From NCBI GenBank assembly GCA_024137785.1, contig JAHRHZ010000267.1, positions 13,582,711 through 13,646,710 on the forward strand: a stretch of DNA of 64,000 nucleotides, read 5' to 3'. This document shows positions 191 to 58,900 of this stretch, piece after piece. The notes below the pieces were generated by a model. It did no database searches and had not been told where the DNA came from. It was given only the letters and a program-made list of their open reading frames with translations. The position numbers were made by a program, and so were the translations under genes. Origin of the DNA: Ginglymostoma cirratum (Eukaryota). How positions within the stretch are numbered: position 1 is the stretch's first letter; each line of letters starts with the position of its first letter.

Positions 191-394
191 TTTGAATGTA
201 GTAGGAACTGCAGATGCTGGAGAATCTGAGATAACAAGGTGTAGAGCTGGATGAACACAGCAGGCCAAGCAGCATCATAGGAGCAGGAGAGCTTGACGTT
301 TCAGGCCTGGACCCTTCTTCAGTCCGAAACATCAAGCTCTCCTGCTCCTATGATGCTGCTTGGCCTGCTGTGTTCATCCAGCTCTACACCTTGT
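191..394. mobile_element. Palindromic Penelope-like (PLE) pLTR-derived mini-insertion
   Basis: Arms ~232-303 and ~325-396 are reverse complements. Direct repeat TAACTAATGAAACAT at 176-190 and 395-409 (TSD). Minus-strand hammerhead core CTGAAGA-agggtccaggcct-GAAACGTC at 295-322. Confidence 0.8.
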
Positions 395-2644: not shown

Positions 2645-3212
2645 TTTGCAGAAACAAAAGTAGAAATTACTGGAAAAGCTCAGCAGGCCTGGCAGCAACT
2701 GTGGAGAGGAACCAAAGCTAATGCTTTGAGTCTAGTGACCCTTCCTGAGAACTGATGGCAGCAAGAAAATGTTGTTTCTTTTTATACAGAAGATAGGGTG
2801 GAGGGAGGCAGTAAGGAGTAAACAATAGGTGGAGATAGAGCCCAAAGAGAGAGAACATTGGACAGCCAAAGGAGTGTAATGAGCAGTCTTGGAGAATAAA
2901 TAGCTACTAATAGGGACTTTTCATGGCTGACAATGGGTTGTGTGTAATAACAGACCATGTGTTAACAAGGCCTGGTGTGTGGGACTTGGGGTATGGATAT
3001 TGGAGAAGGTGCCTCAAGAACTCAATGTTGAGTCCAGGAGGCCATAGAGTTCGCAAGTAGAAAATGAAGTAATGTTCTTCCAGCTTGTGCTGAGCCTCAC
3101 TGGAACGCTGCAGTAAGCCTCAGACAGAGATGTTGGCCAGGGAACAAGGTGCTGTGTTGAAGTGTATCACCTGCGGACAAAATGTAGATGTTCTGCGAAG
3201 CGGTCACCCAAT
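2645..3212 (-). mobile_element. PLE 3' part: GIY-YIG endonuclease C-terminus, 3' UTR and pLTR
   Basis: Minus strand reads LGDRFAEHLH...HFNTAPCSLANISV*GLLQRSSEAQHKLEEHYFIFYLRTLWPPGLNIEF, typical of the PLE GIY-YIG end. pLTR-like sequence at 2645-2755. Confidence 0.8.
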
Positions 3213-3251: not shown

Positions 3252-3695
3252 TGTGGAGAACTATTACATTATAGATGCTGAGCGCCAGCTTTCAGAAACC
3301 TCCACCTGAACCGTGACCCCACAATGGAACATCAGGCCATTGTGTCCACTACAGTCACTAACCTCATTTCATCTGTTGATCTTCTCCCACTCCCCGCTCC
3401 ACCGCCCCCCCAACCCCACTGCCTCCAAGCTGGTAGTCTCCCAATCCTGCATGGCTCAGTTCTACCACCTTCTCAGAATCCACAAACAAGACTGCCAGGG
3501 CAGGCCAATTGTTTCTATATGCTCTTGCCCCATAGAACTCATCTCTTCCTACCTCGACTTGGTTTCTTCTCCCTTTGTCTAGCCCCTTCCTACTTACATC
3601 TGCGATTCCTCTGGTGCTTTGCATCAGTTTCAGAATTTCCCGTTTGCAGGCTCTAGCCGCCGCCTCTTCACCATGAACGTGCAATCCCTTTACAA
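3252..3695 (+). mobile_element. PLE reverse transcriptase N-terminal fragment (decayed)
   Basis: FYHLLRIHKQDCQGRPIVSICSCPIELISSYLD and LFTMNVQSLY match the PLE RT motifs FYLLPKIHK..GRPIVS and LFTMDVQSLY. Frameshifts and stops present. Confidence 0.85.
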
Positions 3696-17800: not shown

Positions 17801-18268
17801 ACAAGTAATTTAAATTGACCTCTGTGCTATTCCCTCACACACTGGGACAGCGATGGTCACTAGTGAGTGTAAAATGAAGAGCGCAGCTATTTTTTCCTCA
17901 CTCATTCATGGGATGAGGGTGGCGCTGGCTAGGTCAGCATTTGATGCCTATCCCTAATTGCCCAAGGTGGGAGTGGGGTTTAAGAGTCAACTATATTGCT
18001 ACAGATCTGGAGTCACATGTAGGCCAGACCAGGGAAGGATGGCAGTCTCCTTCCTTAATGGACTTAGTGAACCAATGGGTTTTTCCTACAATCAATAATA
18101 GATTTACGGTCATCATTAATTTTTTTTCCTTTATTTGTTCAGAGGATGAGGGCGTCGCTGGCTAGGCCAGCATTTATTGCCCAACCCTAATTGCTCAGAG
18201 GGCAATTCAGAGTTAACCACATTTCTGGGGGTCTGAAGTCACATGTAGACCAGACTAAGTAAAGGTAG

Positions 18269-18482
18269 TAGAGATAAAAGGTACTGCAGATGCTGGAGAA
18301 TCCGAGATAACAAGCATGGGTCTGGATGAACACAGCAGGTCAAGCAGCATCATAGGAGCAGGAAAACTTGACGTTTTCGGGCCCATTTCTGATGAAGGGT
18401 TTAGGCCCGAAACGTCAAGTTTTCCTGCTCCTATGATGCTGCTTGACCTGCTGTGTTCATCCAGCCCCATGCTTGTTATCTC
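18269..18482. mobile_element. Palindromic PLE pLTR-derived mini-insertion (young)
   Basis: Near-perfect inverted arms ~18304-18384 and ~18404-18482. 12-bp TSD AAGTAAAGGTAG at 18257-18268 and 18483-18494. Confidence 0.85.
18385..18420 (+). ncRNA. Minimal type I hammerhead ribozyme motif (PLE-associated)
   Basis: attt-CTGATGA-a-GGG-tttagg-CCC-GAAAC-GTC-aagt. Intact catalytic core, 3-bp stem II, ACGT palindrome for a dimeric stem III, short stem I. Confidence 0.65.
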
Positions 18483-19224
18483 AAGTAAAGGTAGCAGTTT
18501 CCTTCCCTAAAGGACATTAGTGAAATATATGGGTTTTCCCAACAATTGGCAATGGATTTGTGGTCATCATTAAACTCTTAATTCCAGATATTTATTTATT
18601 TCAAATTCCACCATCTACCATCATGGGATTCGAACCCATCTCCCCAGAACATTACCTGACTCTCTGGATCAACAGTCCAGCAAAAAATCACCGATCTGTC
18701 ACCTCCCCTCTGATGGTCTAGTGGTATTATTTTTACAAAGAAGTTTTAAGAGGCTGCAAGAGCATCATGAAGTGTTTTCTTAAAGAGAATGTAGAAAACA
18801 AAGAAACGCAACAGCAGAGTTAAAGTGAAAGAAGCAAGACAGAAGACAAATGCAGAGACAAAGAGGCACAGCAATTCAAAGGTATTAAAGTGACAGCATT
18901 ATTTTGCTACCATAGTGATGCCATTGGAGATCAACTGGTAGCTGCTGAAATATGCACATCTGTGTTGATAATTTTTCAAAACAACATTTTCAAGAGTTTG
19001 GAGTTGCTGACAAGACCAGTGTGTAGTGCTTTCATAGAACACATGGGTATTACAGAACATTTGGAATTATACTCCCATTTAGGTTGAGATGGGAAAAGCA
19101 AACTGAAATAAAGCAGAACATGACCCACCTTTTTAACAGCTTTTCATTTATGCATTGCATTTTGTGGCTGGGAAAGTCAATAAGCCCCTAGTGGCACAGG
19201 CATGTTGCTCACAAAGATTTAAGT

Positions 19225-19640
19225 AGAGAGCCGAGAGAATCTAAGATTGTTCTCCAAGGATCAGAGAAGATTATGGGTCAATTTAATAGAGGTACTCAAA
19301 TTCAGATGAGGCTCTGATAGAGTAAATAAGGCCAAACCCTTTCCATTGGCATGCGGATCTGTAACCAGAGGATGTAGATAGAAGATAATTGAGAAAAGAA
19401 TCAGTGGGGAAATTAGATTTTTTTTAATCCAAGAAGTTGTTATGATCTGGAATGCATTGTTTGAAAGAGTGATGGAACAAGATTAAATAATCGTTTTAAA
19501 AGCAGAAACATGATACATCTTTGAAAAAGAATAATATTCTGAGCTATTGGGAGAGGGTGGGGAAATGAGATTAACTAATGTGGCTTGTTCACAGAGTCAG
19601 CACTGGCAAGATGGACTGATTGGCCCCACTGTACTATAAG
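19225..19640 (+). mobile_element. Decayed CR1 LINE 3' end
   Basis: ttgttctcc..gagaagattatgggtcaatttaatagaggtactcaaa...gttgttatgatctggaatgcattg...gatggactgattggcc. Confidence 0.65.
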
Positions 19641-21015
19641 ATGATCTGTTGAATGATCACATTTCTGTTATGACTCTGTGTATTTACAGCATCAACGTTT
19701 GATTATGTCATTCACACATACTGAAATGTAGACTCCAGTAATCAACAAAATGATACTTTATGGCATTTTGAGACTGTCTGAAACATTGCCAACATCATAA
19801 AATCAGAAATCCCCTGAGCATACACATTGAGGGAGGAACCAAAAACTAAACCATAAAGTATCAGGAGAAGTGAATGAATAGAACCATTTGTGAAAATGCA
19901 TAATTAGGACTGAGAGAAAGAGATGTGGCATTTTTCTCATCTATTTATCATTAAGGAAATTCAAAAATTGCATTCAGCTAAAAGCCATTTACACTGAACC
20001 ATCGACATAGGGTTCACATAGGGCTCCCATTGTGGCAGGCAAGTTTGCAAACTTCCTGTTACCTCAGTTGTCATTTGTCAAATTATGTTGTACTGTACAG
20101 ACCAGCTCAATCTACACAGTTGGCCGGATGTAGACTTCACACGGAGCCGAGCTAGCCTCAAGAGGATCTGCACTGACTGAAAAGAATTTGTTGTTGACCA
20201 CTGGTACTGCAATTGACTGCAAGAAACAAAATTACTACAACACAGCACAGAGAGGGCTTCCCCATTCACTGATATGGCACTATGAACTTAATAATGGAGG
20301 CAAGAGGGACATCTTACAAAGAAGTTTATATTTAATATTGCTGCAAGAATTAACATTATGAGGGATGGTGGAAATAGGGATTTATTTCAAATTTTGTGGA
20401 CATAGCTGGAGTGTTTTTTTTTAAAGAGCTCATTCAAAGTTCACTGTGATCACTGGAGTTGTTTTTTTAGCAAGACTTCCTGGAAAACACGTACCTGATG
20501 ATAACTGATGCATTGCTGTAGAAAGTGCTAGGGCTGTTTGAACAGTGACTTGGAGACGTTCTTGTTTTAGTGGTTCAGTTGGAGGAAAGCTTATGAAGAA
20601 CAAGTTACTCAGCTGATCTTTCCCATTTCTGAAAACGTAACCATCCACATCAATTTGGGATGAACACTGTGTGTTAATTTGGAAGAGTGATTGAAAGAAC
20701 ATCTCCTGAGCAAACTGAGGTAGCAAGACTTCAGAGACAACAACTATTGACTTCACCACATGTGCCAGAATATCAGGACAACAGATTCCAGACCTTCCTA
20801 ACCTTTATCTTATTGCCTTCCTTTGTCAATGAATCTCTTTGTTTCAGGGAGCCAGTCTCCACAGATAAATTTATGTTTTGTTTCTCTTTTCCTGAAGAGT
20901 TTGTGTGTGTTTTAGTGTGTATATTTTGAAAATTGTTATAGGGATGAGCATTTATGCATCTATATTACTGACTGTATACATGAAATCTTGTACTGTTATT
21001 AAGTATATGTTGCCT

Positions 21016-21345
21016 GACTCTCTCCCTAACCTCAAAATTCTCCTCAGCCCCAATCATTTTGTAACCCTGGCACTCTCCTTAACCCTGACCCTCACCCTAT
21101 CCCTGACCCTCGACTTAACCCTAATCCTCTCCCTACCCCTGACAATCTCCCTATCCCTGACAATCTCCCTAACCTGAACCCCTCTCTAACCTTGATCCTC
21201 TCCCTAACCCTGACCCTTTCCCTAACCCTGACCCTCTCCTTATCCCCGCCCCTGACCCTATCCCAGACCCTCTCCTTAACTCCAGCACTGTCCCTAACCC
21301 TGACCCTCTCCCTAATCCCTACACTTTCCCTGACCCCAGCCCTAA
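21016..21345. repeat. Telomere-like hexamer array with 18-bp higher-order unit CCCTAA-CCCTGA-CCCTCT
   Basis: Directly visible. It generates the low-complexity (LT/LS)n and (RV/RE)n ORFs in the track. Confidence 0.85.
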
Positions 21346-22299
21346 TGCCAAACATTCTCTTGAACAAAGAAACTGCACATGGTCAGCCAACGCAGTCTCA
21401 GGAGTAGAAAGAGCTACATTACACCAATGATGAAGAAGTACCATCACATATAAGGGATAATCTATATGCCAGCTCACAGGTTGAGGTCACAGACAGGGTC
21501 TATGATGGGGAACACAGGTGAGGACTTCGAAGGGGTGCATACAGGACAAAGCCGAGGATGATGCTTAGAGAGCTGTTGGCCCATCAACAAGCATGCCAGG
21601 ACAGTGTCATAGGACCACTGACAAGAGGAATGGAGGAGTCCAGCTCCAACACAGCAGAGGATACAGTGCAGAGGCTGGAACCCGATCTTTTCCAGTGTGG
21701 GAATGATATTGATCTCCATGACTGCACTTATGGACCTAGGTACATACAAAGTCTGCTGGGCATCTTCTTAGCTTTTGTACAGCATGAATATCCAAATCAT
21801 CTGACATTTCAATGCTGTAGTACTAGCTCAAACTGGGATCATGTGATCTATGCTTGTTGCCAGTTGGCATGTAGAGTCAGACAGCCTCATCATGGCTGTA
21901 GATCTCACTGCTCAAAGTCACAGGCAGGCTCCTGTGGCATTTGCGGTGTGCTAAAACGGGAAAGGACATTTGGGGAATGTGCAAGGGTGAACCACACAGT
22001 TTTTGTTTGCAAAAGTAGATGTGTTTTTGGGAAAAGATGTTTTTGAACAAGGTGTTGATGATAAATTTACTTGTAGAATCTTACATTTGATGAAACTATG
22101 GATTATGAAGTGGAGAATGATGGTAAGGTCATGGTAGTGAATTTCTCTTCATGGAATCAGAGCCTGAACAAATATCTTGGACACTCTGTCTGGTCTGAAG
22201 GGGTCCTGGCTGTGTTTTCTCTGCCTTCTCTTCCTCCTGTTTCTGAGGTGGGCTATGGATCCCTCATGATAAAAGACCCATCCTTTATGGTGGTGATAT

Positions 22300-24244: not shown

Positions 24245-25247
24245 TACAATACGTAAGGAAAGGGGTTAATCCTTGATATTGTGCTTCATCATGTACGCAA
24301 GCCAGCATTTTCATAGAATTTCTCACAAACCCATCCGATTATGTCAGCACAAGCATTTTCAAATGTCAACAGTGGCAGGTAGAAGCAAACACAGGCAGGG
24401 CACTGCAATACACATGGGAGACATGCGAGGAAATGTACCTGGAAAAGAGTGAAATAATATGGGCTGAACAAGTATTCACTAAATTCCCATCCCAAATTAG
24501 AAAGTGGGAAAACTATCCAGTGCCCGTTTCTTGATTCTTATCCTGAGAATTCTATTTGAAAGTCCATTATTAGTCATTAGGTGAGCCAGAAATTAGACTG
24601 GCTGTATCCATCCATTATTGAATATTCCATCTCTACTTACTGTCTGGATTCTCACTTGAAGCATAAATTCTTGCTGGATACACTAAGAACACATGCTGGG
24701 CCTAAATTCATGCCTTGAGGAAAGGAGGGGAGAAAGACAAGTAAAAGCATTAGAAAAAAAAATGCATTTGACTCTTGTCCATTCAATTTTTAAAAAAGTT
24801 GGTTAGTATCCAATTTATTTGGTACATAAAGTAATCGCAGAAATGGTCAGAAATGAGCCAATTAATTGGATCCTGGCTTGCTCAAGGCAGTTTCACAGCA
24901 GTCTGACAATTTTTAAGCTAAGTATACTTAGTAATGGAAATCACCAATTTAGATTTGCAAAATGAAAGGAGGAAGTATCAATTTTCAGACAACTCATTGT
25001 AGTCTTTGTGATATATCTTTAACTGTTCGGCCCACATTATTTCCTTCTTTTCAGGTACGTTTCCTTGCATGTCTCCCATGTGTATTGCAGTGCCCTGCCT
25101 GTGTTTGCTTCTACCTGCCACTGTTGACATTTGAAAATGCTTGTGCTGACATAATCGGATGGGTTTATGAGAAATTCTATGAAAATGCTGGCTTGCGTAC
25201 ATGAGGGAGCACAATATCAAGGATTAACCCATTTCCCATGTATTGTA
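24245..25247. repeat. Long inverted repeat: arms 24245-24470 and 25024-25247, ~550-bp spacer
   Basis: Arms are reverse complements; the central ~135 bp differ at one position. The ORF track shows the same peptide on opposite strands. Confidence 0.95.
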
Positions 25248-25964: not shown

Positions 25965-26128
25965 TTCAGGAAAGAGAGAAAGCAGAGTTCACGTTTTCCT
26001 GAAGAAGGGTCACTTGAAACGTTGACTTTGTTTCTCTTTCCACGCGTACCGCCAGACCTGCTGAGCTTCTCCAACAATTTCTATTGTTGTTTCAATTTTC
26101 CAGCATACACAGTTCTTTGTTTCGTTTC
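25965..26128 (+). mobile_element. Older PLE pLTR fragment with a short inverted arm
   Basis: CTGAAGAAGGGTCACTTGAAACGTTGAC...cagacctgctgagcttctcc...tccagcat. Same family as 2645-2755 and 50065-50150. Confidence 0.6.
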
Positions 26129-40330: not shown

Positions 40331-40747
40331 CAGAGCACAGGAGAAGTGCAAGCAATGGTGTTAGGTGAGGAGCAGGAGACGATATTAGTCAATAATCTCT
40401 ACTTTAGGAAATGCAACAGCATGGTGATTTTGAGTAGTCATTTTCTGGACCTATTATTTTCCATTGAGTAGGAAAACAGAACTGTCAGCTCTACTGACCA
40501 ATCAGTCAGCTTTCCAATCTACAGATAAATACCAGCATGCTGGCTGATCCTAGAGGTGATTCCTATCTTTCTTGGAAGGACTTAGAGACAAATGTTGTAA
40601 AACTAAGAGTACTGATGACCTTTAATGACATTGCCATTTTTATAATTCAGTTCACGTGCAAATGACCCTTCAAGAACAAAAGGAGAAAATTTGGGGTTGA
40701 AGACTGTCTGTACAGTAAGTCTATTAAAAGACATGCAAACTATTTCT

Positions 40748-40984
40748 ATGATAACAAGGTCTGGAGCTGGATGAACACAGCAGGCCAAGCAACACCAGAG
40801 GAGCACGAAATCTGGCGTTTCGGGTCTGGACCCTTCCTCAGAAATGCCATTTCTGAAGAAGGGTCCAGACCAGAAATGTCAGTTTTCCTGTTCCTATGAT
40901 GCTGCTTGGCCTGCTGTGTTCATCCAGCTCTACACCTTGCTATCTCAGATTCTCCAGCATCGGCAGTTCCCACTGTCTCTCCCC
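40748..40984. mobile_element. Palindromic PLE pLTR-derived mini-insertion with two back-to-back mutated hammerhead cores
   Basis: Inverted arms around the centre gaaatgccatttc (~40841-40853). TSD CAAACTATTTCT at 40736-40747 and 40985-40996. Confidence 0.8.
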
Positions 40985-41384
40985 CAAACTATTTCTGTGT
41001 TTACTTTTCACAAATTTGCCAATCTCACGATAGGACTGGTACATTAAGTGTAGTTTCTGTTTGTTTCAAGATATACTACAAGATCTGAATCTCACTTTGC
41101 TATTACTTTTAGTACAGCAGAGGTTTTCTTTTTTAGTTCCACTCCTGCAACAGTTATGACAAATTTTAAATTGTACCATGGGGGTAATATGACTAATTAT
41201 ACAGGCCATAGGTTTGTCAGGTTCAGTGTGAAGGTCAAGTCAGCTATGTTTCTTATGGCAACAATAAATTCTTCGTTTATTGCTAAAAGCAAACTTGTTC
41301 AAACAAAGATACAAAGGCTGTTGACGAACAGTGTGAATTATCCAAAGACACATGAATATGAATACACTATGAAAATAAATGAGT

Positions 41385-48700: not shown

Positions 48701-50214
48701 ACATAATTTTTCATGTAAGCTGTTGAAGGAGAAATGTGTTTTTCACTTTTGGATGCTTGTGTCATGATAGACAAAAAGAAGATGTTTCTGCATTGAAATT
48801 GGTTATAAGTTTTGTCAGAGAAATAAACCAAAAGAACTGAAAGTCCATAATAGGGAAATGCACCAAAAAGTGAACATTATTTTGCAATTAAATGACAATT
48901 ACAAAGTATGCAAGTTAATTAGCAAATGATACATAGTGGGAACAAATCTCAATTCAAGATTATATTAATCTTCAGTTATATATGGCGATTACTTAATGAA
49001 AAGCATCATAGCAAAATATGATATATGATTTATTCGTACATTAAAATATGCATAATGGAGGAAATAGCTTAAGTATCCATTTTCCCCTATTGTAATCATA
49101 TAATCAGTCAGAATCCATGTGTCTGAAATAGACGAAAATATAATTTCAAAAGGTGTTTATCATGAATCCCACTGATTCAACATAATTCTTAACATCTACA
49201 TCATACTGTGTGTAATCAGATGGCATTTTAATTGCTGAGTTCCAATGAAATCTGAGAAAAACTAATCTGAAGTTCACCATCTTTCTCTCTGCTTCCCAGC
49301 AACTCAGGCCAATCCATTAATGGATTCCTTGAAGGCACTGCAATTCTCAATGTAGAAATGCAAGAACATTTTTAGAAGCAATTTATGTGTTGCCTCTCTG
49401 AGTGCTTGGAGCAGTGAAAAGTAAATGGAAAGGGCAAGTGAACAAAGTGTGTGGGATCAAGTCCATAAAGACTTGTATAAATCATGTGCGTTAAAACTTT
49501 TACAGATCCAAAGAGGATCAGTAAGGGAGTTGGACCTGCATCTGCAGTCCTGAGACACGTGAGAAAGTGAACAATTTTGCTAACCACATCATATTGCCTA
49601 TTAGTCCTCAAAAGTATCGTCACCTACTTTGCTGTATCTTTCTAATGTTACTGCTGGGATTATGAGTTATGAATTATTTTATTGTCGCATCTATTTTACA
49701 GTGAGAAATGCAATAAAGTACCGTAAAAACCTTTCATTCATCTCAGTCAAGAATTTAGTGTTTCCTTCCATTCTTAAAGGAGTGGTGCAGCAGGTGCCAA
49801 AGAACGTTTGCTGACTTCAAGGATTTTGCGCAAACTGATTACTTCAGGAAATGGGTGGTAGTAGAATGGCAAGGAGAATGAGCTATAAGAGGATAGAGGA
49901 AAAAAAGGAGTAGGGCTCTCAGCAGAAGGCCATACTTGCACATGATCTTCAGGGAGAAATTTTACGGCCACAACCCTAATGAGGGACAATGCATCCCATC
50001 TCTGTCCTCCAGGAAAGATTCCAGCCCTGAGATTTGATACCTGCAGCAGAGTTAATTTTGATGCTCAAGAGCAGAATTGCTGGAAAAGCTCAGCAGGTCT
50101 GGCAGCATCTGTGAAGAAAAAAATCAGAGTTAATATTTCAGCTCTGGTGAGGTAGGGCCATCTCATTCTTCTAAACTGTACTGAAAGCAAGCCCGGATGA
50201 ACCAATTTCTCCTC

Positions 50215-53620: not shown

Positions 53621-55426
53621 GTCATACTTCGTCAAATTGTAGCAGATTTGTGTGAACGGGAAGAGAAAGTACACAGTCTTTGCAAAGGGACACTTTGCCC
53701 CTGACATGTGTCCCATAATGCTCCAGGTTGTGCTCTCACAGAGGGTTGTGTTTTGCCTGGCAAAGGCCCCAGGCATGTTCTCCAAATGATTCTGCATTGC
53801 CATGTTTATTGTCACCGACCTCACAGGATCATGGAGGCATGCACTACCGCAGGGCTACCTTCAACCTGATAATACCTCTCAGGCTTTAAAGAATCTGTAA
53901 GGAATAAGGAATGACGACAGTTAATGTCAACTCCACCACCAGATGCAACGACGAGTGTGTATTTGCAGGAGCATGACATCGTGGCCAGCTGACAGCCCTG
54001 GCCCCGACTACAAGGGAGTAGCATTATGTACCAAATCTGTGAATTGAGTGCAGCAAGTAGGTTATAAGATTGAAGCAAACAGTCAATCTTTTGAATCAAA
54101 TTACATCATTCTTCTGGTTCTCTGTGTGTGGAGTACTGTGTTGTTTTTCAATCACCACTTCAACAAGTGCAGTGAAAAGAGATCAATTCAAAATTTATGC
54201 TAACTGCGAGAAGTTAATTGCTAAATATTTCTAATAAGAAGTGAATGGCTTGGCTCTTGACTAGCAAAACTGCAAAGAAAACTAACTGGAAGGAGTGGGA
54301 ACCTACAGTTGTAATTAAACCATTTTCTATGAACAAATAGAATGGTTTGAAACATTCAAGAAATGCTTATATTAGAGAAACATTGAGAATAATTCTGATG
54401 ATTGGCCAATAATTTAAAATGGACAAGGTTAGATCAGTTGTGGTTATATGTTTGGATTGATTTTCATTTTCATCAAAGTGAATGGAAATCAGTTATCCCT
54501 TTACGTGATAATATGAAATTGATCTCTCAACCATTTTTTTATAACTATCACCATGAAAATAACAGAGTGAAATATTGGTGACCATGTTAAAGGTTCATGC
54601 ACTGGCACCATCACAATTTCAAAGGTGAAATTTTGCTTGCGTTTCAATTTCTTAAATGGTTTAAGCATTCCTTCTTTCTCCTTCCTTGGGTGTGGTCTCT
54701 TGAGAGGAGCTATTTTCCATGGTAATATTTTGGATGTTCTAATGACATCCAGAATAGCACTACAACATATATCAAGTCAGTCAGACAGTCACACAGAAAG
54801 ATTGCCAATATCTAATAGAGTTCCAGTGTGAGAAATGTATCTACAAGAAAACCATTGACATGTATGTTGGGGGTAAGTGGGTGCATGGGAAAAATGGGAG
54901 ATAGCAAATTGGCTCCCTGTTTTAAACCTCTGCTGAAGGGCTCTTGTGGTGAAGTGGTAGTGTCCATTCCTTTGAGCCAGAAGCCATGCCTGCTGCAGAG
55001 GTGTGTAATAACTTAATACAATAACAGATTAATTCGAAAATCTTTAAACTTCTGTACAAGAAAGGATTGATTATAGTCTAAGGTTATTAGTGCGGATAAT
55101 TTTTGAAATATTACCTGGGATTAATAGATATATTTTGTGATTGTATTCTGGTACATTTAATGCGTAACAAAATTAGTCATTGAAAACATGTGATGCTAAC
55201 AAGCTATTTTGTTTATATTGCAACTAATTGCATGTATTGTCAACAGTTGTGATGAAATAGACTTTTCCATTTTTTTGGATTGTGGTCCAACACCTGTTTT
55301 TTAAAAAAATCATTGCTGAAGGCATTCATTTAAGAATCAGTGTATTACTATGACTTTGGTGTTATGTATAAGATTAAATGAGTCAGACAGAAGGTTTCCT
55401 CCCATAAAGAACATGACTGAACTAGA

Positions 55427-55963
55427 GATAACAAGCATGGGGCTGGATGAACACAGCAGGTCAAGCAGCATCATAGGAGCAGGAAAACTCGACGTTTCGG
55501 GCCTAAACCCTTCATCAGAAATGGGGGAGGGGAAGAGGGTTCTGAAATAAATAGGGAGAGAGGGGGAGGCAGATAGAAGATGGATAGAGGAGAGGATAGG
55601 TGGAGAGGAGGCAGACAAGTCGAAGTGGCGGGGATGGAGCCAGTAAAGGTGAGTGTAGGTAGGGGGGTAGGGAGGAGATAGGTCAGTCCAGGGAGGACGG
55701 ACAGGTCAAGGGGGCGGGATGATGTTAGTAGATAGGAGATGGGGGTGTGGCTTGAGGTGAGAGGAAGAACAGGTTAGGGAGGTGGAGATGAGCTGGGCTG
55801 GTTTTGGGATGCGGTTGGGGGAGGGGAGATTTTGAAGCTTGTGAAATCCACATTGATGCCATTGGGCTGTTCCTGCTCCTATGATGCTGCTTGACCTGCT
55901 GTGTTCATCCAGCCCCATGCTTGTTATCTCGGATTCTCCAGCATCTGCAGTACCTTTTATCTC
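55427..55963 (-). mobile_element. Young 5'-truncated PLE with inverted pLTR, GIY-YIG tail and hammerhead core
   Basis: Minus strand QPNGINVDFTSFK (end of PLE ORF), pyrimidine-rich UTR, pLTR. Inverted pLTR piece at 55869-55963. TSD TGACTGAACTAGA at 55414-55426 and 55964-55976. Confidence 0.88.
55487..55522 (-). ncRNA. Minimal type I hammerhead ribozyme motif (PLE-associated)
   Basis: Minus strand attt-CTGATGA-a-GGG-tttagg-CCC-GAAAC-GTC-gagt, same core as 18385-18420. Confidence 0.65.
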
Positions 55964-58900
55964 TGACTGAACTAGATTGGGTTTTAATGGCAATCCAGTA
56001 TTCATGCAACCAATATTGGTGTGTTAGCTCAATTGACTGGCCCCCCGGTTTAAAATGCAGAGTGATGCTAATACTGTAGTTCAATTCCTCTACCAGCTGT
56101 CACTAGTGTGAAAGACTCTCTTTCTTTCCCTCTGCCTGACTCTGAGGTTAAATCACCACCAGTTGTTTCTTTCAAATGGAGACTTCACCTTCATTGATCA
56201 GAGATATTCTGTTTCTTTCCAGATTAAATGAATTACCTGAATCTAAATTCTCCAATTGTTGTGGTTGGGATTTGAATTTTAGTCGCAAGTTCAGTCACAC
56301 ACCAACACTGTAACCATACCTGCTACCAAATAAAGCCAAATGACAACTTTTGTTTCAGATGACACCGGGGTTGAACAGATGGAACCAAGGTAAATGAGTG
56401 GATTTAAAATGGATATCAGCCATGACTGGCAGAGCAGGCTCAAGGGGTTGAATTAATCTGTTCCTGTGTGTATCTACAGGAGGTTTGAGTAGGCAGGGGC
56501 AATCATCTTAACAACTTCCCAAAGGGAACACAGGGCAGTTTTGCTAACGTTTTATTGATGTCGATAGTTATTTTAAGTATCATTCATGATAATAAAAGGG
56601 AGCTTTATTTTCTACTCTACTAAATCCCAGGCTTTAAAAATGTTACTCAGATGAGGAATAACATTGCAGGAGGACCTGCATCCAGAATGTTATTTTTGGT
56701 GGGAATAGTACAGTGTCCATACCGAAGAGTCAATGCTCCTAGAAACTGTTTATTGAATACTCTAAAGTGGCAATGACTTGCTTGATGGTCGCCTTTTATT
56801 GAGTAGTTTCACATTGCCCACTTGCTCGTCCAACTCCCGTGTAGATCATCTACTCTTTCCTCACTGATTCACCTTCTGGTGATTTATCAGACATTAGCCA
56901 GAGTGTGTTGTTCACTTGTATGTAATATGCTACAGGATCATCCATTCATATAAGAGATATGGAGCAAGAACTGAAAAGACAGCGATCGATCTTTGTTGTT
57001 GCTGATACCTTTAGCACGTTGGCTGTCACAAACCAATTGCACGTGGAGATAAGGAGCTCTGTAATCAATTACAGGGCCAAACCAACAAGGCTTCCATTCA
57101 ATTCATGTGTCAGTGGCTGAAGATGCAAAGTGTGAATCTTTTCAGGTTATCCAATATTTGACTCTGTCCTTAGTGAGTACCTCGAGCTGCAGCAATTAGT
57201 AAAAATGCAAGGAGGGGTGAGGGACTAAAAGGTCTAAAGCATGATGAAACTGAATAATATACAGACTCCAGCAAAATGTAAGTATAAGTGTAAAACAGAT
57301 AAAAATGACAGTTTCAGCTTTGTTGCAATTTTACGAACTAAGGAAAACATTTCTTGTTCTCCTGCCAATACATACTAGTGGTGTATATGGTTCCAAACGT
57401 TTGATGGAGTTTCTTCTGTGATGTGGGTATTGGATACTCTATGTCATCTTGACAAACATCTTCTCTACATTGTTGCTGAACCAGCTTTCTGGGGAGAGTT
57501 TGACATCAAACCTTTGCAGTTTACAACCAAATTGGATTTGTAGTACATCATTAGGTTGCTTCTAATTAATTGGTAATAATTACGGTTCAACTCCATTTGA
57601 GCAATGGGTATCATGGTGCAGTGCCTATTTGTTTGCAAGTGTTTTCACCTTACATGAACACAACCTCTCTAAAAGATTAATAGACGTATTCTACAGGTTG
57701 CTACACTCTGAGTGCTACAAAGTAATACAAGAGTGATCTTGTCACCCTCGTCCAAAATCACACTGTGACTGATAATCCAAGTTTACCAACTAAAAATGGT
57801 CACCTGAGTCATTGCTTTGAATTAAGGAAGGATGCATGGAAAATCTTGAGTGGGAAATTTGGAGAACGATATTAATAACTCTACATCAAGCACCACAACT
57901 TTTATTGTTTCCAAAGTTTTGTATTAACTCATTTGTAATTCTGCAGAAAAATACAAATAATTAGTGGGTGGGGCAACCAAAAGAATTGATTCACTGAAGT
58001 TGCAATGTTCCTTTCCATGTCGTGCGTAAGAATATGTGTCCATTTTCAATATAGCAATCTCTGCGATGATCAAACTATTGCCATTCATATCAAGTCATGT
58101 CTTTGCCTTTGGAGATAATGATAACTGTGCTTGCTTGTATATAAAACAGTAGTTGCTGCATGAAAACTGGTTGAGACTAAATTGGAAATTTATTTTCCGT
58201 CTCTTCTTGGTTTTATTTGCTGTCTCTCCTTGATTTTATTTCCACTGAAGTTATTGGAAATGAAAACAAAAAGTGATGTAAAATAGTCTGACTGAATCAT
58301 TATCTGTAAATTCACGATATTGCTCAAAATCAAGTTCGATCCCAATGTACTATGGCAAGAATTCCAGATCCAAATTTTGATCCAGTGACTTGGAATTTTG
58401 TCTGTAAAACATACATTTGAATGCTTCCAATTTACACAAGTTATTTGTTATAAATTATCCAAACTCAGATCCTCAAACACTGCAGACTTTATAGATAATT
58501 TCAGACTATCCACAGACGTTAACATTTCATTCTGCCACTGCATATTGCTACTGCACGTAGCTTCCGCCACACCTCAGCTTCATAATTCAGTTTGATTGAC
58601 TGCAGAGGTCAACAGCATGTTTGCATAGTACTCTGGCAGCTGTCTGATCATTGAGCAGTATACTTTTTTTTAAATTGCACCGGTCCAAAAGCAGAAAATA
58701 AGTGCTCTTACTCTCAACTGTGCCTTGAGATGCAGAGCTGGGAATGGTCAGATCCTGATAAGAGACTCATTAAATGTAACATTGCAAGTTTGGCAGATCT
58801 GATATGATTCTCTTTTGGGAATAGAGGAGAACTAATAGAAAGGAAAGAAGGTTCTTATTCTTCAGAGAATCACCAAAGGTCAAGAATAAAAATGAAAAAT

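Follow-up and report, generated by a model that had tools for sequence, protein, structure and literature searches.

The four palindromic inserts in a 64-kb window of the Ginglymostoma cirratum genome (the window being the whole stretch of 64,000 nucleotides analysed here) are very probably dead-end integration products of a Penelope-like element (PLE). Each was probably formed by two reverse transcriptions primed from both strands of a staggered cut, once, at integration. Taken by themselves the inserts are unremarkable PLE by-products, and what makes them valuable is the record of integration that they preserve.

Four palindromic inserts and their parts

All four inserts lie where the initial annotation had placed them, each between exact target-site duplications (TSDs) of 12-15 bp. 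Copies 1 to 4 are 204, 214, 237 and 537 bp long, and their arms are complementary over 74 nt (97%), 73 nt (99%), 102 nt (85%) and 61 nt (100%), respectively; inverted arms are present in every insert as proposed, with a measured size of 61-102 nt in place of the earlier estimate of about 80-110 nt. When the eight arms are aligned in one sense, each proves to be the 3' part of the same terminal repeat (pLTR), with differing 5' cut points. The arms of each insert are joined 5' to 5', and their 3' ends face outward. In all four inserts one arm ends at a common point while its partner continues 33-38 nt further; this 34-nt tail, found on exactly one arm in 4/4 window inserts, had gone unmentioned in the initial annotation.

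Positions within the repeat are numbered on a natural copy (L104), in which 0 is the first and +33 the last base of the tail, C3 of the hammerhead is -95 and the cleavage base is -68. The predicted fold of copy 2 is one long stem (-162 kcal/mol; z = -24.9, 200 shuffles), and its arms overlap by 2 nt at the joint. Copy 2 is itself nested, lying in the second of two adjoining copies of another repeat (window 17890-18616; families D11, D12 and D17). The parts of the inserts, in window coordinates, are:

176-190: copy 1, left TSD (15 bp), exact
191-322, minus strand: copy 1, left arm, with the tail at 191-227 and the pLTR back to -95; hammerhead core at 322-295
323-394, plus strand: copy 1, right arm, from about -78/-75, tail-less, ending about 6 nt before -1
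395-409: copy 1, right TSD, exact
18257-18268: copy 2, left TSD (12 bp), exact
18270-18303, minus strand: copy 2, 34-nt tail (0 to +33), on the left arm only
18304-18383, minus strand: copy 2, left arm, pLTR -80 to -1, without a CUGAUGA box and with one extra base in the GAAA box
18382-18482, plus strand: copy 2, right arm, pLTR -102 to -1, tail-less
18389-18416, plus strand: copy 2, minimal type I hammerhead core, with a predicted cut after 18416, predicted to be masked by the left arm
18483-18494: copy 2, right TSD, exact
40736-40747: copy 3, left TSD (12 bp), exact
40748-40846, minus strand: copy 3, left arm, from -100, tail-less; degenerate core at 40841-40814
40847-40984, plus strand: copy 3, right arm, from -101, with the tail at 40947-40984; degenerate core at 40853-40880
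40985-40996: copy 3, right TSD, exact
55414-55426: copy 4, left TSD (13 bp), exact
55425-55869, minus strand: copy 4, long arm, -463 to -1, tail-less; intact core at 55518-55491
55869-55777, minus strand: copy 4, last 31 codons of the PLE ORF, within the long arm
55870-55963, plus strand: copy 4, short arm, from -62, with the tail at 55931-55963, core absent
55964-55976: copy 4, right TSD, exact

The parent element

The suggested link between the inserts and PLEs is borne out by the parent ORF and by the pLTR layout. Locus L083, which is continuous with the long arm of copy 4, is a broken copy with Pfam matches in two different frames, one to RVT_1 (E 1.2e-4, a partial domain under the gathering score) and one to GIY-YIG (E 1.4e-4, at the gathering score). 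As judged from these matches, the parent ORF has the order that defines EN+ PLEs, a reverse transcriptase (RT) followed by a C-terminal GIY-YIG. The L095 frame and the N-terminal L262 frame had no Pfam match. Copy 4 retains the last 31 residues of the ORF, 31/31 identical to the parent; the end of the PLE ORF is there, as had been claimed, but the GIY-YIG domain itself is not, since the retained residues are 276-306 and the Pfam GIY-YIG match covers 192-269. The pLTR layout by which EN+ PLEs are defined in PMC8557442 and PMC3846280 is also present, with a partial tandem of pLTRs, an inverted 5'-truncated copy and a tail of 30-40 bp at one end.

In L083 a linker motif, CNRRKCYTC (CX4CX2C), precedes the GIY-YIG. 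A CX2-5CxxC linker is a feature of Neptune and Nematis and not of Poseidon (PMC8557442). The parent therefore appears to be a Neptune-type PLE, by a linker motif that is common to Neptune and Nematis. A Poseidon-like identity was rejected, since the parent has the CX2-5CxxC linker that is absent from the Penelope/Poseidon clade.

Joints and abundance

Our sample of the 4.36-Gb genome comprises 26 blocks, each of 50 kb and placed at a round coordinate of a large contig (827,654 readable bases; 472,346 of 1,300,000 bases are N). The sample holds 31 adjacent head-to-head pairs, or 2.4 per 64 kb, which by a rough extrapolation that leaves N-split and wider-gap pairs uncounted is about 160,000 per genome. 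The 30-nt hammerhead core of copies 2 and 4 has 31,257 exact matches genome-wide, and these two counts confirm the high abundance that had been expected.

A genome-wide joint search covered copies 2 and 4, and each of these two joints has a single exact match, itself. In the sample, the 25 resolved one-tail pairs all have different joints (25/25), and their arms run from about 50 to more than 1,300 nt, with sizes grading continuously. The comparison of central junctions that the initial annotation had put forward as a test thus favours independent truncations; many copies with one internal joint and fixed ends, as a self-propagating element would have, are not what we find. The loci closest in sequence to copy 2, 25 after removal of five duplicates from 30 and with copy 2 itself included, fall into 13 joint classes. 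The commonest of these occurs at nine of the 25 loci and has 17 matches genome-wide. At the 16 places that these represent (two of the matches read as one), the short arm is tailed in 12 and tail-less in four, and both arms of one place share variants missing from other places, such as -51G in L202. The occurrence of the tail on either arm, together with place-specific haplotypes, indicates that this joint has arisen recurrently at two preferred stops. Sequence beyond the tail is missing from the short palindromes, which for that reason are likely to be dead ends.

The one-tail rule

Among the 31 sampled pairs, 25 have one tail, none has two, one (weak and old) has no tail and five are obscured by N; the one-tail arrangement therefore holds in 25 of 26 resolvable pairs. 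The tail arm is the longer at its 5' side in 13 of the 25, the tail-less arm in nine, and the two are equal in three; in eight of the 25 the tail-less arm reaches further 5' by at least 5 nt. Copies 2 and 4 are likewise non-nested, each arm holding bases missing from its partner. Bases missing from the partner rule out that either arm was made as a fold-back DNA copy of it, and the non-nested pairs (8/25) therefore favour two RNA-templated primings over cDNA fold-back.

The joints mostly show an overlap of 0-3 nt or a short filler. TSDs surround the whole insert in 4/4 cases in the window and in 15/25 of the sampled one-tail pairs (12-19 bp, at most one mismatch), the other 10 being without a recognisable TSD; TSD-like repeats of equal score occur in 15 of 31 real pairs versus 2 of 112 mismatched flank pairs. 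At subfamily columns, arms agree in 270/303 comparisons within an insert versus 5780/10086 between inserts, and the arm's own partner is its best match in only 6 of 31 inserts, which demonstrates a shared subfamily and not a shared molecule. The agreement within inserts can reflect one subfamily being active at a time or later gene conversion. A further 65 strong arm hits are unpaired, some of them beside N runs, and not all are explained.

Two smaller regularities concern the ends of the arms. In joint filler, 4-17 nt of the hammerhead's 5' edge are often repeated (L016, L020, L022-L025, L239, L277), which looks as if a cDNA end had annealed, extended and slipped several times. About one-fifth of tail arms end at +38 to +41 rather than at +33, a possible third start site.

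In vitro, the Anolis Poseidon protein nicks and extends both strands, with dimerisation predicted, and initiates synthesis at two sites within the RNA, which delimit the tail (PMC11167929). By analogy, the simplest account of the pairs would be one priming per strand and one per start site; both-strand priming and the two start sites come from in vitro work on Poseidon, whereas the parent here appears to be of Neptune type. We consider it likely that twin RNA-templated priming made the pairs.

Where the arms stop and the probable 5' end of the RNA

Of 117 strong arms, 86 have a readable 5' end, the rest lying near N or a block edge or exceeding 600 nt (11 arms). The stops of 33 of these 86 fall at -104 to -95, just before the hammerhead, where the stop rate per nucleotide at risk is 0.098, compared with 0.009 downstream and 0.006 upstream, a roughly tenfold excess. 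Stops at -101 to -97 are likewise seen in 14 of 30 young loci picked only by an intact core. The inserts can thus be described as truncation products, one of the two readings offered initially, but not as random ones, since the stops cluster just 5' of the hammerhead. A second preferred stop, at -74/-73, lies at the foot of stem II and implies that structure can stop the enzyme.

At two loci the tail continues into shared sequence, the 5' body of the element. We examined the best 30 of 1,120 candidate 5'-body loci (40 scored, one of them the query); within these 30 the upstream pLTR begins at -100 to -98 in 11 (two beside N), further 5' in six, and is shorter in 13. The body start is entered by at least 4 nt in five of 24 long tail arms and in eight of 42 short ones. 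In an unstranded poly(A) RNA run, 42,832 reads were placed on the family copy (12.9 million records), and 87% of them continue into other sequence; a pile-up of read starts was sought in this run on the family copy and none was seen. A second run gave 42 reads; neither run bears on where the RNA starts.

We lean towards placing the 5' end of the element RNA at about -99, a base that is the A of what we take to be an initiator-like motif. The body-start, stop and jump data fit an RNA that starts at about -99 and is primed 100 and 133 nt in.

Jump joints, proposed template jumps and tandem derivatives

Among the same best 30 of 1,120 candidates, three loci have long bodies versus 27 in which the sequence passes from some point in the body (156-1188) directly to the start of a pLTR; this start lies at -105 to -98 in 14 of the 27, mostly with 0-3 nt of overlap. 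These 27 of the 30 loci (L250-L279), at about 300-1,300 nt, have a short pLTR-body-pLTR structure and are not full-length elements; such units may be a major RNA source of the stumps. In L278 an unusual start, -119, is reached twice, and in L255, L256 and L268 one switch point is common to both arms. The switch joint of L268 is found in the genome only in its own two, non-nested arms, and that of L255 in four separate inserts (L255/L286, L282, L283 and L284). Because the latter recurs in four inserts, a joint shared by two arms can come from a deleted source locus, and the L268 joint could likewise be inherited if its source is absent from the assembly. A 403-nt non-coding unit, composed of pLTR -214 to +33 plus 156 nt of body and bearing one hammerhead per unit, is a small propagating, retrozyme-like derivative, a deleted tandem unit present at four sites.

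Post-insertion deletion as the cause of the jumps is disfavoured by the clustering of one end at -105 to -98, less so for the other 13 loci. Reads going back match genomic jump structures and thus do not demonstrate circular RNA.

We suggest, tentatively, that an obligatory jump is needed for long copies. To a wider reading we give somewhat less than even credence: the palindromes may represent a frozen first step of PLE replication, in which an enzyme dimer primes both target strands at two sites close to the 5' end of a single RNA, runs off this end in the manner of LTR strong-stop DNA and has to jump back to the RNA if a longer copy is to be made. If this is true, failed jumps would join two short cDNAs into a hairpin, mis-aimed jumps would produce deleted tandem units and so provide a birth route of non-LTR retrozymes, and about 10^5 inserts would map the start site, the priming sites and the stagger of the cut at base resolution.

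The hammerhead core and its predicted masking

A minimal hammerhead in the pLTR is recognizable by motif in copies 1, 2 and 4, which contain the minimal type I arrangement that we tested (CUGANGA, stem II, GAAA, a palindromic 15.2-16.2 and NUH). The initial annotation had proposed a core in every insert, and this is correct for these three copies; in copy 3 the core is degenerate on both strands, reading GAAATGTC on one and GAAACGCC on the opposite strand. The cut predicted after 18416 was correctly placed. In the suggested search with Rfam hammerhead models, none of the four cores matched at E <= 1. Two kinds of weak match were rejected as chance or hairpin effects, namely a Hammerhead_3 match at 19272-19342 (25.5 bits, gathering 48.5, core CAGAUGAG) and the Rfam microRNA matches of copy 1 (mir-3202, E 1e-6, below gathering).

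In an equilibrium model without kinetics, freeing the core is predicted to cost 19.6, 21.5, 27-31 and 6.3 kcal/mol in copies 1 to 4, and 2.3 kcal/mol in a lone arm; in three copies, at 20-31 kcal/mol, the model has the cleavage site buried in the hairpin. Of 76 sampled arms long enough to include the core, only 35 still match its consensus, which, with the predicted burial, speaks against the idea that the family is a rich source of self-cleaving RNA. The substrate proposed for a cleavage assay, 18360-18450, contains the antisense arm 18360-18383, which pairs with the cut site, and would therefore test the hairpin and not the ribozyme. For minimal PLE hammerheads, monomers were uncleaved and dimers were cleaved weakly (PMC4209133). 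Opposite-strand motif pairs 100-700 bp apart are mentioned for metazoan PLEs in the same paper; in the palindromes studied here, since opposite-strand cores are not on one RNA in the sense orientation, dimerisation in cis is impossible.

Hammerhead-cut RNA as the main template was rejected, only 1 of 86 random arms ending at -70 to -65; ends at exactly -67 occur at four loci (L004, L005, L227 and L258, from selected sets), too few for a claim. The hammerhead of the short palindromes is likely a passenger masked by the opposite arm.

Alternative explanations and the proposed course of integration

The recurrence of the commonest joint (9 of 25 copy-2-like loci, 17 times genome-wide) could be taken to mean that the short palindromes are a non-autonomous family, retrozyme- or MITE-like, that is transcribed and re-inserted as a unit, and the coding-less 403-nt unit, with the same joint in four inserts, establishes that small derivatives can propagate. 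However, that joint has 17 matches against 31,257 cores and carries the tail on either arm in several haplotypes, the joints of copies 2 and 4 are unique, all 25 sampled joints differ, sizes grade into arms of more than 1 kb, and the propagating 403-nt unit is a direct tandem with no palindrome. A unit of this kind is very improbable, and the self-propagating, retrozyme-like palindrome family of the initial annotation is already largely refuted. We attach hardly any weight to the further idea that the inserts have been retained for a function as hairpin or self-cleaving RNA modules. The cores of copies 2 and 4 are intact, and family sequence, including head-to-head joints at -100 to -98, is present in the poly(A) reads. 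Against this, cores decay (35 of 76 remain intact, and neither strand of copy 3 has an unbroken one), the cleavage site is masked by the hairpin in the predicted folds, the 87% of family reads that continue into unrelated sequence resemble passive read-through in a library that is unstranded, PLE minimal hammerheads are uncleaved as monomers and weak as dimers (PMC4209133), and just one arm of 86 ends close to the cut.

The remaining alternatives concern how a pair is made. Self-priming or fold-back, on cDNA or on an antisense template, within a single target-primed event is the published reading of palindromic head-to-head PLE joints (PMC3846280); it would also account for identical arms, and a fold-back origin of the tail-less arm is compatible with 16 of 25 pairs, those in which this arm does not exceed the tail arm in length. 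It is nevertheless quite unlikely here, as eight of the 25 pairs, along with copies 2 and 4 and L268, have arms that each hold sequence missing from the partner, the joints are mostly 0-3 nt overlaps or filler and not long palindromes, and the side of the tail is independent of arm length (13 versus 9). Twin priming might instead take place at the 3' pLTR of a long RNA, with the pile-up at -99 due to stalling at the hammerhead or at a C-rich tract. This tract starts at -100 in all subfamilies, the stop at -74/-73 shows that the enzyme can be halted by structure, and the poly(A) reads do not reveal the RNA start. We nonetheless think such stalling unlikely, though worth keeping in view: copies that run through the whole 5' body likewise begin at -100 to -98, jumps start at -105 to -98 in 14 of 27 loci, and the tail arms that enter the sequence after the 5' pLTR by at least 4 nt (5 of 24 long, 8 of 42 short) look as if primed at the pLTR-body border.

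We therefore retain twin priming on an RNA that begins at about -99. Two nicks 12-15 nt apart would give the TSD. One enzyme would start at the outer site and make the tail arm, and the other at the inner site and make the tail-less arm, both on RNA from one source and perhaps on one molecule. The two sites would lie about 133 and 100 nt from the RNA 5' end, and many cDNAs would run off this end or stop earlier. The two cDNA 3' ends would then be joined through a 0-3 nt overlap or a few filler bases to form the palindrome, while some cDNAs would jump back onto RNA and continue, giving longer or deleted tandem copies.

Significance

The formation of PLE pLTRs, inverted ends and tail has been called undefined (PMC8557442), and the in vitro PLE system ends at first-strand initiation (PMC11167929). 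The one-tail rule, the non-nested arms, the stop at about -99 and the jump joints provide exact predictions for an in vitro assay. The roughly extrapolated 160,000 pairs also mean many perfect hairpins in host transcripts, and hairpin repeats of this kind can be mis-annotated as microRNA precursors, as the mir-3202 match of copy 1, below gathering, illustrates.

Other features of the window and the assembly

The window also holds remains of another, diverged pLTR family, single arms of greater age whose hammerhead-like cores are worn, at 2670-2758 (minus strand), 25996-26120 (plus strand) and 50078-50146 (minus strand), and a decayed fragment at 3415-3600 (plus strand) that is 70% like the start of the PLE RT region. 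An inverted pair of 189-nt segments, 24257-24445 and 25048-25236, is 96% complementary with 602 nt between them; it is unrelated to the pLTR, has no long ORF, and is possibly a DNA-transposon derivative or a local inverted duplication. A degenerate 18-bp tandem array with TAACCC-like units occupies 21013-21355. In the sample blocks and in L220-L279, N runs of fixed length often lie in the middle of palindromes of young copies, and the assembly therefore probably under-counts or distorts them.

Comparison with known systems

A head-to-head layout with a one-sided tail is already published. PLE insertions of Adineta vaga have an inverted pLTR, a one-sided 31-bp tail and a TSD, and antisense self-priming was proposed for them (PMC3846280); the inverted-pLTR layout is drawn as typical of EN+ PLEs (PMC8557442). 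The shark inserts resemble those of A. vaga in the inverted, 5'-truncated head-to-head pLTR, the 30-40 bp tail at one end and the TSD (PMC3846280), and EN+ PLEs more generally in that the tail is the first part of the body (PMC3846280, PMC8557442). They differ in often having both arms of about 100-133 nt, in TSDs of 12-15 bp in the window inserts versus 8-10 bp (PMC3846280), in a copy number of order 10^5 and in 5' ends that pile up at one position. The non-nested arms here do not favour the antisense self-priming proposed for A. vaga over twin priming (PMC3846280).

The hammerhead motifs share with the minimal hammerheads of metazoan PLEs the CUGANGA box, an unpaired base before stem II, GAAA, a palindromic ACGU replacing helix III and a short helix I (PMC4209133). 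Unlike the motifs described there, the opposite arm of the palindromes studied here pairs with the core. The Anolis carolinensis element PAc (Poseidon) similarly carries a minimal hammerhead close to where pLTR and ORF meet; the two internal positions at which its RT starts match the two end positions that bound the tail here, and its extension on both strands fits the two arms (PMC11167929). Inverted insertions, run-off at the 5' end and template jumps are not treated in the available portion of PMC11167929. Unlike PAc, the parent here has the CX2-5CxxC linker.

In L1 twin priming, two primings from two cut strands copy non-overlapping segments of the RNA, whereas the copied segments here overlap and yield a palindrome. 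The minus-strand strong-stop DNA of LTR elements is a short cDNA that runs off the RNA 5' end and is then transferred, with a tRNA primer and an integrase that are absent here. Our searches, which covered the literature outside subscription papers and repeat databases such as Repbase and Dfam, turned up neither a PLE for which twin priming, strong-stop or run-off had been described nor any shark-specific description.

What defines retrozymes is a head-to-tail tandem arrangement in which two or more consecutive units each carry a hammerhead (bioRxiv 10.64898/2026.07.22.740005). The four inserts are like non-LTR retrozymes in being non-coding, hammerhead-bearing and pLTR-derived (10.64898/2026.07.22.740005), but are arranged head to head, with at most one core per strand, and not in tandem. 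The 403-nt deleted unit found at other loci is nearer to non-LTR retrozymes than the four inserts are.
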